Assembly: GCA_964505005.1 (NCBI GenBank)
Contig: CAZDFQ010000005.1
Span: forward strand, 1-60,134
Reading direction: 5' to 3'
Length of the DNA: 60,134 nucleotides
Origin: an uncultured Candidatus Saccharibacteria bacterium
GTDB taxonomy: Bacteria; Patescibacteriota; Minisyncoccia; UBA6257; 2-01-FULL-56-20
Within the stretch, counting starts at the first letter, position 1. Each line of letters opens with the position of its first letter. The notes below the pieces were generated by a model. The model did no database searches. It had not been told where the DNA came from and was given only the letters and a program-made list of their open reading frames with translations. Positions 12,069-54,121 of this stretch are shown in pieces. Made by a program: the position numbers and the translations under genes.

Positions 12069-12188
12069 ATACTTATTTGCGCGATTCGAATTTCTCGAAT
12101 TCCACTCGAATGCCCCGAAGGCTTATTTGGAAGATTTTTATTTTATTCGAGCGATTCGAGTGCGTTCGCGTAGTCCGAGTTGCGTTAA

Positions 12189-30850: not shown

Positions 30851-30968
30851 AAGCATTGAAACCATCAGCATAAATCAGCTGCCATCAGCATTTATCAGCG
30901 TTTTGCGGAGATTCAAGTTCAAGACCGCTGATTTATGCTGATAATGGTTGATTGATGCGGATTTTTAT

Positions 30969-32366
30969 ATGAGGAGGATTTATTTCGACTACGCGGCTTC
31001 GACGCCGGTTGACCCCAGGGTTGAAGCCGCAATGCGGCCTTATTTTTCAGAAAAATTCGGCAATGCTTCTTCGCTCCATTCATTTGGACAGGAGGCCTTA
31101 GCGGCGGTTGACAACGCGCGCGAAACCATTGCGAAAGCCATCGGGCGTCCGCCAGCCGGCGGATTCCGCGAAATAATTTTCACCGGCTCGGCCACCGAAG
31201 CGAACAATTTGGCGCTCCGCGGCGTCATTAACGCGACTCGAAAAACTCGAATTTCACTCGAATTATCCGAAAAAAACCATTCGAGTCATTCGGGTGTATT
31301 CGTAGATTCGGGTCGCGTAAGGATGATTGTATCATCCATTGAGCATGAATCCATTCTGGAAACCGCCCGCGACCTTGAAAACGAAGGCCGCACTGAAGTC
31401 GTCTATTTGCCGGTTGATAAGAGCGGCCTGATTGACCTTGAAGAACTGAAAAAATCTTTGACTGAAAATACGATTCTTGTTTCGGTCATGTATGCTAATA
31501 ATGAGATTGGGACAATTCAGCCGGTCGCGGAAATTTCGAAAATAATTTCAGAATTTAGAAAACAGAAAATAGAAAATAGAAACACGAAAAATTCTATATT
31601 CTACTTTCTAAATTCTAAATTCTATCCCTTATTCCACACCGACGCTGTTCAGGCCTTCCAGTATCTTGATTGCGACGTCAATAAACTCGGCGTTGACTTG
31701 ATGACTTTGTCAGGTCATAAAATCTACGGGCCGAAAGGTAGCGGCGCGCTGTATATAAGACCTATAGGACTTATAAGTCCTATAGGTCCTATCGTTACCG
31801 GCGGCGGTCAGGAATTCGGGCTTCGTTCCGGCACGGAAAATGTGCCGGCCATTGTTGGTTTTGGCAAAGCCGTCGAGTTGGCCACGGCGGTTCGTGAAAA
31901 AGAAGTTAAGAGAGTCGGGAAGCTCCGCGATTATTTCTGGCAGGGGCTGAAAAAAGTTTATCCGAAAGCGGAAATTAATGGAGCCGCGACCCGAAAAATT
32001 CGAACCTCATCCGAATTACCCGAAAAAAATAAAAATCATTCGGGGCATTCGGATGCATTCGCCCGCCCGCCTTCGAGTTGCCGAAGGCAAGTCGGGCAGG
32101 TAGATTCGGATTGCTTACCCAATATTCTGAACGTTTATTTCCCGGATTATCGGGCCGACGAACTGCTCACCCGCTTTGATTTAGTGGGCTTAGCAGTTTC
32201 TGCTGGTTCGGCCTGTTCCAGCCGGTCAGCCGAGCCTTCCTATATTATAAGGGCGCTTGGCCATGATAATGAACGGGCGAAAAGAAGCCTTCGTTTCAGT
32301 TTCGGCCGACCGACAACCAGAAAGGATATTGACAAGGCGCTAAAAATCATTAGAGGATTAATATAA
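30969..32366 (+). CDS. iscS: cysteine desulfurase with five in-frame repeat insertions
   Basis: YFDYAASTP, ATEANN, HTDAVQ, SGHKIYGPKG, RSGTENV, SAGSACSS. Confidence 0.93.
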   Translation: MRRIYFDYAASTPVDPRVEAAMRPYFSEKFGNASSLHSFGQEALAAVDNARETIAKAIGRPPAGGFREIIFTGSATEANNLALRGVINATRKTRISLELSEKNHSSHSGVFVDSGRVRMIVSSIEHESILETARDLENEGRTEVVYLPVDKSGLIDLEELKKSLTENTILVSVMYANNEIGTIQPVAEISKIISEFRKQKIENRNTKNSIFYFLNSKFYPLFHTDAVQAFQYLDCDVNKLGVDLMTLSGHKIYGPKGSGALYIRPIGLISPIGPIVTGGGQEFGLRSGTENVPAIVGFGKAVELATAVREKEVKRVGKLRDYFWQGLKKVYPKAEINGAATRKIRTSSELPEKNKNHSGHSDAFARPPSSCRRQVGQVDSDCLPNILNVYFPDYRADELLTRFDLVGLAVSAGSACSSRSAEPSYIIRALGHDNERAKRSLRFSFGRPTTRKDIDKALKIIRGLI

Positions 32367-32401
32367 TAAGACCTATAAGTCCAATAAGTCCTATAGGACC
32401 T

Positions 32402-33697
32402 ATGAACAATAACTTCGATAAAAAAATTTTAATAGTTGCGGTTGCCGGCATCGTCATCGGCGTCATTGTTGCTCCGGCTTTGAGAACGCCATCAGCCCAG
32501 GCGAACATTTTGAATGATTTATGGAACAGCCTGATTTCGCCTTTTGCCAAGAACATCACCCCCCAAGTCAGCACTTCTTCATTGCCAAGTTATCAGAACA
32601 CTTCTAACAAGTCGGCTTATCAGCCGGTCCTTGACTATGAAAGGGCGGTCATCGAAGCAGTCAAAAAGGCCTCGCCGGCTGTGGTTTCGGTAACTATTTC
32701 CAAATATGTTCCAATTATTGAGCAATGCCCTTATAATCCTTTTTCTGATTTACCGCCGGAATTCCAGCAGTTCTTTGGCCAAACGCCTCAATTTTACACT
32801 CCCTGCGATACTGGCAAAAAACAACTTCAGGAAGTGGGCGGCGGCAGCGGTTTTATAATCTCTTCGACCGGCTTGATTTTGACCAATAAACATGTGGTTT
32901 CGGAAAAAAGCGCTGCCTATACTGTTTTGACCAATGACGGCAAAAAATACGAGGCCCTAGTTTTGGCTCGGGACCCGGTCCAGGACCTGGCCGTTCTAAA
33001 ACTAAAAATAGAAGCTACGAATTTGCCGACTGTGGAATTAGGCGATTCAGATTCGGTTGAGCTTGGGCAGACCGCCATTGCCATCGGCAATGCCCTGGGC
33101 GAATTCCGAAACACCGTTTCGGTTGGGGTAGTTTCCGGTTTGGCCCGAACCGTTACTGCTTCCGGCCCTGGTTTTGGCGAAGAAACCATTCAGGGAGTTA
33201 TTCAGACCGATGCGGCAATCAATCCCGGCAACTCCGGCGGACCGCTTCTTAATCTCCGCGGCCAGGTTATCGGCATCAACACCGCCGTTGCTTCCGGCGC
33301 CCAGAACATTGGTTTTGCCATCCCGATTAATCGGGCCAAGCGCGATATCGAGTCAGTTAAAACCAGCGGCGAAATCAAAGTGCCGTTTCTCGGCGTGCGT
33401 TACCTCGCCGTGACGCCGGACATCGCTCAGCAACAAAAACTACCGGTTGATTACGGCGCTTTGGTTCAAAAAAGCGACAGCGGTTCGGCTGTCCAGCCCA
33501 ATTCGCCGGCGGCCAAAGCCGGGATTAAAGCCGGCGACATAATTTTGGAGCTCGATGGCCAGAAGATTGATAAAGACCATTTACTCGGCAATCTGATTTC
33601 GGAAAAGAATGTTGGCCAGACGATTCGTCTTAAAATAAATCGGGCCGGCAAAGAAATTGAACTTGATGTTATCCTTGAAAAACGGCCGAACTTATAG
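32402..33697 (+). CDS. htrA: HtrA/DegP-family serine protease with one PDZ domain
   Basis: LTNKHVV, DLAVL, GNSGGPL catalytic triad. Confidence 0.93.
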   Translation: MNNNFDKKILIVAVAGIVIGVIVAPALRTPSAQANILNDLWNSLISPFAKNITPQVSTSSLPSYQNTSNKSAYQPVLDYERAVIEAVKKASPAVVSVTISKYVPIIEQCPYNPFSDLPPEFQQFFGQTPQFYTPCDTGKKQLQEVGGGSGFIISSTGLILTNKHVVSEKSAAYTVLTNDGKKYEALVLARDPVQDLAVLKLKIEATNLPTVELGDSDSVELGQTAIAIGNALGEFRNTVSVGVVSGLARTVTASGPGFGEETIQGVIQTDAAINPGNSGGPLLNLRGQVIGINTAVASGAQNIGFAIPINRAKRDIESVKTSGEIKVPFLGVRYLAVTPDIAQQQKLPVDYGALVQKSDSGSAVQPNSPAAKAGIKAGDIILELDGQKIDKDHLLGNLISEKNVGQTIRLKINRAGKEIELDVILEKRPNL

Positions 33698-37338: not shown

Positions 37339-38241
37339 ATGAGAAATGAGAAATTAGGGGTAACGAGAAAAATAACCAAAGCCGTTCTGCCAGCCGCCGG
37401 CCTGGGAACGAGATTTTTACCGGCCACCAAAGCCATGCCCAAGGAAATGCTGCCAGTTGTTGACAAGCCCGTAATTCAGTACGTGGTCGAGGAAGCAGTG
37501 ACTTCGGGCATTAAAGATATAGTTATCATTACCGGCTGGCACAAAAGAGCCATTGAGGACCATTTCGACCGGTCGCTGGAAATGGAACGACAGCTAAAAG
37601 AGAAAGGCAAATACGAGCAAGCCGAAGAAATAAAAAAAATTGCCGAGTTGGCCAATTTTATTTATCTCCGTCAGAAAGGGGACTTGTACGGCAACGCCAT
37701 TCCGGTTCTGACCAGCCAGCCAGTTATCGGCGAAGAGGATTTTGCGGTTCTCTGGGGCGATGAATTCATCTGGGCTGAACCGCCCCGCTTGTTCCAAATG
37801 CTCAAAGTTTATGAAAAATATCAGGGAGCGGTTATCTCGGCAATTAGTATCAACGAAAAAAATAGCCTTTCCCGTTACGGGATTGCCGCGGTCGACCACT
37901 TGGAAGATAATGTTTTCAGAATCAAGAGCATTGTCGAAAAGCCGTCGCCGGAAAACGCGCCTTCGAATTTAGCGACTCACGGCGCCTACATTCTGCCCGC
38001 GCAAATTTTTGAAATTATCAAAAATTTGAAGCCGGGCCAGGGGGGAGAAATCTGGCTGGTTGATGCCATCAACGAACTAATCAAAACCGGTTATCCGGTT
38101 TATGCCTGCGAAATCAAAAACGCTAAATATTACGATACCGGCAATAAACTGGAATATCTGAAAACCGTGGTAGAATTCGCCCTGCGCCATCCTGATTTCA
38201 ACTCTGAATTCAAAAATTATTTGAAAGGCCTCAATCTGTGA
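37339..38241 (+). CDS. galU: UTP--glucose-1-phosphate uridylyltransferase
   Basis: KAVLPAAGLGTRFLPATKAMPKEML, VEKP. Confidence 0.95.
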   Translation: MRNEKLGVTRKITKAVLPAAGLGTRFLPATKAMPKEMLPVVDKPVIQYVVEEAVTSGIKDIVIITGWHKRAIEDHFDRSLEMERQLKEKGKYEQAEEIKKIAELANFIYLRQKGDLYGNAIPVLTSQPVIGEEDFAVLWGDEFIWAEPPRLFQMLKVYEKYQGAVISAISINEKNSLSRYGIAAVDHLEDNVFRIKSIVEKPSPENAPSNLATHGAYILPAQIFEIIKNLKPGQGGEIWLVDAINELIKTGYPVYACEIKNAKYYDTGNKLEYLKTVVEFALRHPDFNSEFKNYLKGLNL

Positions 38242-38394
38242 ATCTCTAATTTCTAAATCCTAATTTCTAAACAATCCGCCGGGTGGCGGACAAATAACCG
38301 AAACCCAAAATTCTAAACCCATTTTAAGTTTAGAACATTTGGATTTAGAGATTGTTTAGGATTTAGAGATTAGGATTTAGGATTTTTCAATTTT

Positions 38395-39078: not shown

Positions 39079-39263
39079 TCTGGCAATCAGCATAAATCAG
39101 CTATCATCAGCATTTATCAGTGTTGCCGGCAAAGGAAAAGTTTTTGACACTGATTTATGCTGATTTCGGCGGATTTATGCCGATATTATTAATCCGTTGT
39201 AGAGAAAGCCGGTTTCCGGCAATCAGTTGACTTTTTTCCTCCTTTGCCGCTAAAATACTCCTG

Positions 39264-53946: not shown

Positions 53947-54121
53947 CAACCTCGATTTTATCAAAGCCGGGCGGAAAAGCAAAAGTATACTAAAATTCAG
54001 AAATGCATAAGATCTTAATTTCCAATTCCCAATTTTCAATTATCAATCAATGACTTAATTTTCTAATTTTCAATTAACACTTTCTATGTTTGAAAATTGA
54101 ACATTGGAAATTGATAATTAA

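Follow-up and report, generated by a model that had tools for sequence, protein, structure and literature searches.

Rickettsia palindromic elements (RPE) lie in frame in unrelated housekeeping genes, at positions compatible with the protein fold; according to PMC10969869, which summarises Ogata et al. 2000, they are palindromic repeats of about 100 nucleotides (nt), dispersed in a small genome and found both between genes and in frame inside them. A comparable situation is seen in an uncultured Candidatus Saccharibacteria bacterium, in a stretch of 60,134 nt (GenBank assembly GCA_964505005.1, contig CAZDFQ010000005.1, positions 1 to 60,134 of the forward strand), here called the window. The window is contig C5 of a genome (G000) of 810 kb in 12 contigs, 98.9% complete, and it carries a gene for a NifS/IscS-like cysteine desulfurase. 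Five surface-loop positions of this enzyme, A to E, are filled by the genome's own short-period hairpin-forming repeat families (Table 1), and about 87 of its 465 residues would be translated repeat DNA. The repeats appear to work like RPE, a likeness judged by behaviour, and are not classed as members of that group. Where RPE measure about 100-150 bp and occur in many copies, the B and E inserts are 88 and 129 nt long and the intergenic copies of their family 99-108 nt; in-frame copies also occur in unrelated genes at tolerated positions, with 161 hairpin loci inside open reading frames (ORFs). The differences are an unrelated host lineage (Patescibacteria), arms built of tandem 7-11-nt units, the coexistence of smaller classes (16-, 30- and 39-nt hairpins) with nesting of elements, and units that are genome-specific while the same loops are rewritten in many genera. 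A literature search yielded no paper linking Rickettsia-type palindromic elements with Patescibacteria, and no publication on this class of in-frame repeat hairpins in Patescibacteria.

Cyanobacteria reportedly carry arrays of heptanucleotides (short tandemly repeated repetitive sequences, STRR) and small dispersed repeats (SDR), which are said to have been described by Mazel in 1990 and by Elhai and colleagues in 2008. The likeness is one of anatomy: tandem arrays of period 7 are the dominant repeat class of the present genome (218 of 807), and very small GC-rich elements are nested at fixed points in other repeats (at least 6 of 24 cases). The phylum is another one, the arrays are here paired with their reverse complement into hairpins, and they stand in frame in a probably essential enzyme. 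Template switching can create, maintain and repair hairpins, as PMC8794818 describes for single events in RNA genes. The desulfurase shares two marks with such events: one arm resembles a reverse-complement copy of adjacent native sequence, and differences between lineages are compensatory on both sides of the stem. What differs is that the process would here be a pervasive, lineage-wide source of protein insertions, with no event reconstructed. The REP/REPIN-RAYT systems (repetitive extragenic palindromes and their associated transposase) are likewise short dispersed hairpin palindromes, mostly extragenic (PMC3116915), whereas genic in-frame copies are common here; the RAYT domain PF01797 has 0 matches in G000, in a search whose control matched 6 of 14 reference genomes. 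The tandem repeats of Borgs (PMC9879509) resemble the present ones in being fast-evolving in-frame repeats that add disordered protein segments, and differ in being direct tandem repeats of archaeal extrachromosomal elements rather than hairpin foldbacks in a streamlined bacterial chromosome.

An earlier note on this DNA, made from the letters alone, had described five features within the gene, and all five are present where it placed them. Each folds as the hairpin it was said to be, with z-scores of -3.3 to -7.1 when single-stranded DNA folding is compared with dinucleotide shuffles. Gains in length were measured as the variable stretch between conserved anchor residues, compared with 120 homologues (the best 120 of 8000, by similarity to the insert-containing query). 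By this comparison the protein is about 87 amino acids (aa) longer than its shortest homologues, and the count of five in-frame insertions stands for four of them: A, B, C and E are clear gains in the alignment, D has a net gain of three codons only. With a loop shorter than the homologues' median, D is, by its sequence, a four-unit 9-nt array in a native loop and no 30-bp insertion.

Table 1. The desulfurase gene, its repeat features and related repeats in the window (PLP, pyridoxal 5'-phosphate; AF2, AlphaFold2)
Feature	Position	Strand	Description	Gain (aa)	Loop here / homologue minimum / homologue median (aa)	Fold z
Desulfurase gene	30969..32366	+	NifS/IscS-like class-V PLP cysteine desulfurase, 465 aa; basis PF00266, PDB matches, AF2 fold			
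Insert A	31146..31163	+	Mini-hairpin TCCGCC-AGCC-GGCGGA (hairpin 31148-31163), read RPPAGG; fold -7.2 kcal/mol	net +4	8 / 4 / 4	-3.3
Insert B	31231..31318	+	CGAAT-unit foldback copy, 88 nt, read ATRKTRISLELSEKNHSSHSGVFVDSGR; 12-nt terminal arms 92% complementary	about +22 vs shortest homologue	32 / 10 / 27	-5.2
Insert C	31550..31623	+	Heptamer foldback, (AGAAAAT)n facing (ATTCTAA)n, read RKQKIENRNTKNSIFYFLNSKFY; arms 31550-31581 and 31592-31623, 32 nt, 84% complementary	about +17	23 / 6 / 22	-7.1
Repeat D	31754..31792	+	Four 9-nt units (AAGACCTAT and similar), read RPIGLISPIGPI; perfect 30-nt palindrome at 31759-31788	net +3	16 / 13 / 23.5	-5.8
Insert E	31985..32113	+	Second B-family copy, same orientation and element frame, 129 nt including nested hairpin	about +41	45 / 4 / 14	-4.4
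GC hairpin in E	32062..32100	+	39-nt GC-rich hairpin (CCCGCCCGCC...GGGCAGG) in right arm of E, between ATTCG and TAGATTCG			-2.7
Intergenic B/E relative	12080..12187	+	Full-length copy of the B/E family; fold weaker			-1.9
Upstream hairpin	30864..30962	+	Hairpin of ~10-nt ATCAGCATAA units in spacer directly upstream of start codon; other dispersed family			-4.3
Downstream array	32366..32403	+	Array of D's 9-nt unit, exactly filling the 38-nt spacer from desulfurase stop codon to ATG of HtrA-like gene			-0.8 (no folding)

The repeat anatomy of the features is evident from several sides. Tandem Repeats Finder (TRF) reports period-7 arrays on both arms of C and 4.3 copies of period 9 at D; the D unit is nearly self-complementary, so its array forms the perfect palindrome, which appears as a reverse-strand self-match. 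B and E had been taken for copies of one element, and they do match at 84% over 45 nt and share the peptide frame ATRK.R.S.EL.EKN..HSGHS..FVDS. A further element had been seen nested in E, and this is the GC hairpin of Table 1. At its right end E matches an intergenic copy on contig C3 without a mismatch for 25 nt, which marks E as a fresh family member in this genome and not as a copy of B.

All of these sequences belong to families that are dispersed in the genome. The B/E family consists of foldbacks of about 90-110 nt whose arms are runs of 9-11-nt CGAAT units, and most of its members are intergenic. Full-length copies have the conserved ends GCGACCCGAA ... TTCGGATTGC and stand between genes at C3:25030, C2:88972 and C6:11725, as well as in the window, where the relative that the earlier note had placed at 12080-12185 proves to be a full-length copy two nucleotides longer. 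The uninterrupted 13-mer ATTCGTAGATTCG occurs 10 times. Seeds of the GC hairpin family (CCCGCCCGCC) number 24 genome-wide, and at least 6 of these occupy the point of a B/E arm that the hairpin occupies in insert E. A triple nesting is also observed at C3:79990-80150, where a B/E-type arm holds a GC hairpin that itself encloses another GC-rich insert, about 70 nt long. The exact 16-mer of A recurs at 4 further places, and the genome contains 34 mini-palindromes of the form CCGSC-N4-GSCGG, most of the genic ones reading Pro-Pro-x-Gly-Gly in either orientation. At 38241-38385 an intergenic heptamer foldback (TCTAATT/TCTAAAT units) has the mini-hairpin TCCGCCGGGTGGCGGA nested near its loop, so this small element occurs without coding context as well. 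The heptamers of C dominate the commonest 11-mers of the genome, and arrays of the D unit are found at a dozen other places.

The whole genome contains 424 hairpin loci, compared with 60 after local shuffling of its sequence. Of the 424, the spacers between genes hold 180, the edges of genes 83 and the interior of ORFs 161; the ORFs cover about 87% of the DNA. No TRF period is more frequent than 7, and arrays of period 14 number 74. The desulfurase ORF has three strong hairpin loci, a number that is equalled but not exceeded by other ORFs of G000.

The gene that carries these repeats has the properties of a functional one. Its encompassing ORF runs from 30948 to 32366, and the most likely start is the ATG at 30969, which gives MRRIYFDYAA as in homologues. 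Pfam recognises Aminotran_5 (PF00266) with an E-value of 1.2e-61, the match being split into 4 stretches of the product, and cysteine desulfurases of the PDB match at about E 1e-78 in 3-4 stretches. Among NCBIfam models NifS ranks first (362 bits, cut-off 530.75) and IscS second (336.7 bits, cut-off 643.2); both fall below the curated cut-offs because the inserts push the scores down and break the match into 3-4 stretches. A NifU/IscU-type scaffold gene (PF01592) has 0 matches in G000. The name iscS that the gene had been given is therefore right as to the kind of enzyme and loose as to the subfamily, and 'NifS/IscS-like cysteine desulfurase' is the safe name.

The catalytic motifs and the frame had been called intact, and the alignment bears this out: all 40 invariant columns of the 120-homologue alignment are kept, including H126, D225, Q228, K251 and C416, which we take to form the active site in enzymes of the IscS type (the lysine that binds PLP, the catalytic cysteine and the His/Asp/Gln set). 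Fold and active-site residues are those of a group I class-V PLP cysteine desulfurase. On a tree of the protein core (FastTree, 341 columns, loop columns removed) the terminal branch of this desulfurase is 0.188, against a median of 0.152, and ranks 82nd of 120. G000 has one match to the protein, this gene itself. As judged from these comparisons the gene is intact and not decaying, its product is most likely a working cysteine desulfurase, and the enzyme is probably essential.

Orthologue alignment and AlphaFold had been proposed as the means of placing the inserts in the protein, and both fit surface loops. Every insert sits in a gap of the alignments to PDB chains. The AF2 model has a mean predicted local distance difference test (pLDDT) score of 85.6, and compared with IscS, NFS1 and NifS it reaches template modelling (TM) scores of 0.85-0.93 when normalised to the target and 0.70-0.78 when normalised to the query, a lowering that about 80 extra residues would produce. 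Residues 341-380 in E have a mean pLDDT of 46-53 and are modelled as disordered; the D region scores about 51. B and C reach 72-80, their first halves being modelled as extensions of helices 75-104 and 186-205. Most likely, the inserts end up as flexible loops on the surface of a functional enzyme.

Selection for frame had been suggested, and the length and content of the features support it. All five are multiples of 3 without stops, and the frame is open throughout. The element frame used in the gene contains a stop in 3 of 4 intergenic B/E copies and in neither of the two genic ones. TAG and TAA triplets do occur in the period-7 arms of C, but in frames other than the one read, and the unit that would have placed one in the reading frame is altered. 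Among related genomes with a match, 35 of 36 are open through the gene, with no stop. Support from sequencing reads, which had been named as a check, comes from Logan contigs of four runs of one sample, probably the source: they cover the inserts and show no differences and no indels. Three contig joints lie at repeats, with sides of 26-30 nt, and are read as other organisms or as repeat-induced contig paths.

The same loops are extended in most relatives. Extension by at least 5 aa is found at site B in 105 of 119 homologues, at C in 106, at D in 79 and at E in 80, and site A is extended by 4 aa in 15; the sequences of the extended loops mostly differ. Loop length ranges from 10 to 63 aa at B and from 4 to 57 aa at E, and the smallest total extra length in any homologue is 9 aa. 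Homologues from other organisms at about 40% identity span just 363-417 aa. At 20 orthologue loci the loop DNA consists of short-period arrays and hairpins with other units, for example GTCAAGT, TATCAAG, TCCAACC, GCGTCAC and AATCCTC. Hairpins with z of -2 or below occur there at C in 8 of 12 cases, D in 8 of 16, B in 6 of 19 and E in 2 of 9, compared with 12 of 140 in seven core control segments; one of these controls, k1, by itself reaches 5 of 20, so only sites C and D stand clearly above background.

These units are genome-specific and dispersed. A tandem pair of AATCCTC has 10 matches in genome G009, including 5 within the iscS of that genome, and 0-2 in each of four others; a tandem pair of TCATCTC has 19 in G002, spread over nine contigs and again including 5 within iscS, and 0-2 outside G002. 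Metagenomes scanned for the DNA of close relatives yielded 6 loci at 50% identity or more, none with a C-type insert. Some orthologues, L013 (G019), P0018, P0025, P0029 and P0032, have additional inserts elsewhere: one position follows residue 28, a second lies beyond about residue 136, a third precedes the final helix and a fourth is the 'ALG..' loop. Landing is thus common in the five loops but not confined to them. As for the repeated targeting proposed in the earlier note, the reuse of the same sites is confirmed, while targeting proper is inseparable from loop tolerance or from copying primed by microhomology.

Turnover of the inserts shows on the core tree, where the A type (PPAGG) has 16 carriers and requires 15 changes, against a shuffled mean of 15.2. 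For the C type (KNSxFYFL) carriers and changes both number 11, and for the B type and the D type both number 5. Over the tree, insert types are distributed like shuffled labels. Loop length, by comparison, carries phylogenetic signal, with 22 changes for long D against a shuffled mean of 39.5. Copies also recur within one protein: pairs of different sites scoring at least 45 number 30 of 637 within a protein versus 25 of 5321 between proteins, and 26 of 120 proteins carry the same element in two loops. P0002 has B and C loops that are near-identical for 33 aa. At site D of L010, the copy brings with it the Glu-Phe-Arg codons native to site C, which points to copying of a DNA stretch and not to movement of an element with fixed ends. 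One element in two loops is thus a recurrent property of this gene family.

The most probable explanation of these observations, which we hold with some assurance, is that the desulfurase is a working enzyme with tolerated, translated repeat DNA in it, spread by slippage and template switching. Repeats would probably be spread and renewed at the DNA level by replication slippage together with template switching, the copying being primed by short stretches that a repeat unit has in common with native codons beside the loop. Genic copies would survive only if they keep the frame, contain no stop and lie in loops with room for additional residues; they would be translated as loops or helix extensions rather than spliced out. 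Each genome would write its own units into the same loops, often copying them from loop to loop. The anatomy at three sites points to copying primed by short homology. At site A, the stem of the inserted hairpin is shared by a palindrome native to insert-free orthologues, GCGGA(W)TTCCGC; in the hairpins the stem is TCCGCC/GGCGGA in L001 and TCCGGC/GCCGGA in L007, changed on both sides, and this difference parallels the GCG versus GCC alanine codons found there in insert-free orthologues. At site C, the right arm TTCTAAATTC is exactly complementary to the native Glu-Phe-Arg codons GAATTTAGA, and at site D the array runs into native Pro-Ile codons.

The repair genes of the genome may have favoured this state. 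In E. coli, SbcCD, MutS and ExoVII limit palindromes, repeat slippage and quasi-palindrome mutation. SbcD, MutS1 and XseA (the large subunit of ExoVII) were not detected in G000, and SbcC is represented by a 25.9-bit N-terminal match only (C1:93138-93269). Without SbcD, a true SbcC, MutS and XseA, hairpins of this kind would be easier to keep. Extended to Patescibacteria as a whole, the idea becomes tentative: it is possible, though doubtful, that a lineage-wide mutational process and not a transposon, namely template switching primed by microhomology, repeatedly rewrites the same loops with the units current in each genome and also carries elements between neighbouring loops of a gene, favoured by the loss of SbcCD, MutS and ExoVII.

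Several points weigh against translated, tolerated repeat DNA spread by slippage and template switching, or against parts of it. Translation of the inserts is something we infer from sequence, and template switching is read from the anatomy of the sites. Mini-hairpin copies in AT-rich intergenic repeats (e.g. 38276-38289) have no local GGCGGA source, so some true dispersal mechanism is needed, and this could be an unrecognised enzyme. In G000, E is nearer to the intergenic copies than to B, which speaks against copying from loop to loop; the control for such copying consists of different proteins and not of different genes of one genome. Since the homologues were picked with an insert-containing query, the figures for loop occupancy are biased upward. 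Support on the core tree is at least 90 on 44 of 118 branches and at least 70 on 92 of 118, and the sorting of hairpin loci depends on home-made ORF calls. The search for a transposase covered a single family. Finally, the contigs of the four runs contain no empty-site or polymorphic allele, a genome of the same genus (G001) has no match to the desulfurase query, and the nearest homologue among 5.8 billion proteins is 57-60% identical; for these reasons the insertion events cannot be reconstructed base by base.

Among the alternatives, the one that survives best, unlikely as we judge it to be, is that the inserts are non-autonomous transposons resembling miniature inverted-repeat transposable elements (MITEs), with the enzyme encoded elsewhere or lost and the loops holding a preferred target. 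The terminal inverted repeats of B (12 nt, 92% complementary) are of the MITE kind, full-length B/E copies have conserved ends, and the GC hairpin enters B/E arms at one precise point in at least 6 of 24 cases. A mobile element would also be in keeping with the patchy spread of the B/E 13-mer, which occurs in 17 of 200 other genomes of the order, belonging to at least 12 families; the reversed control gave 4 hits. Against this, no target-site duplication or direct repeat is visible at the element ends, and a search of G000 for the Y1/RAYT transposase (PF01797), the one transposase family looked for, gave no match. Units and lengths vary continuously, the heptamers are genome-specific, and copies between loops drag native flanking codons along, as with the Glu-Phe-Arg codons of site C at site D in L010, unlike cut-and-paste movement.

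A function of the hairpins or of the peptides, such as translation pacing, transcript stability or partner-binding loops, for which they would have been selected, seems decidedly improbable. It would account for the recurrence of hairpin stability at C and D in many genera despite differing sequences, for the KNSxFYFL peptide in 11 homologues and PPAGG in 16, and for the modelling of parts of B and C as helix extensions (pLDDT 72-80). The same repeat families, however, fill intergenic spacers and other genes, loop sequence and length vary widely (10-63 aa at B, 4-57 aa at E), some homologues are almost insert-free (a minimum of 9 extra aa), and the insert types have no phylogenetic signal.

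That the mature enzyme lacks these segments, the hairpins being cut out of the mRNA or the inserts out of the protein, is very unlikely. The RNA-level form had been offered as an alternative in the earlier note, on the ground that each insert folds as a hairpin, and it did not hold up. Excision would leave the length and the stops of an insert free, and both are constrained, here and in 35 of 36 matched relatives; the genic B/E copies are free of the stops found in 3 of 4 intergenic ones. Rfam gave no intron or other known family in the region at threshold (two sub-threshold chance matches), and in the Pfam search of the desulfurase PF00266 was the sole domain, with no intein domain. We know of no hairpin-splicing system in bacteria.

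That the gene is a decaying pseudogene, or the inserts assembly artefacts, is hardly credible: three strong hairpin loci in one ORF, the tendency of repeats to mislead assemblers and the contig joints at repeats could suggest it, but the 465-aa frame is open with its invariant residues kept and an ordinary branch length, the desulfurase is the genome's only match to the protein, separate Logan assemblies of four runs of one sample agree over the inserts, and orthologues from many other assemblies have the same pattern.

The surroundings of the gene are also rich in repeats. The hairpin directly upstream of the start codon has 25 matches; its relatives include one at 39085-39165 and about 15 more across the genome. 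The gene downstream of the D-unit array encodes a protease of the Do/HtrA family (NCBIfam). Within the conserved N-terminal coding region, an inverted repeat at 30993-31030 has 16-nt arms that are 81% complementary, and the control segment matching it has a fold z of -2 or below in 5 orthologues out of 20, so the mRNA may have a conserved structure close to the start. The strongest hairpin locus of the contig, with 27 paired bases and AATT-rich units, is at a gene edge (54015-54121). Elsewhere in the genome, a near-perfect palindrome of 32 nt (ACATTC.AACATTCTGCAGAATGTT.GAATGT) occurs in three ORFs (C1:135056-135087, C1:108288-108319 and C2:104827-104858).

A streamlined genome of 810 kb thus spends about a fifth of one enzyme on repeat DNA, and its relatives do likewise with other repeats. 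This amounts to a natural experiment on which positions of a fold tolerate insertions, on how selfish or mutational DNA lives inside essential genes and on the origin of disordered protein segments, and the desulfurase is a particularly dense and informative example of in-frame repeat hairpins. Inserts of this kind depress the scores of curated families, split alignments and inflate the apparent novelty of proteins in metagenomes of the candidate phyla radiation (CPR). If the lineage-wide process put forward tentatively above is real, apparent compensatory evolution of hairpins inside genes would be a mutational by-product, and hairpin-driven copying would make and remade parts of proteins in the smallest bacterial genomes to an extent that could be measured in their total length.

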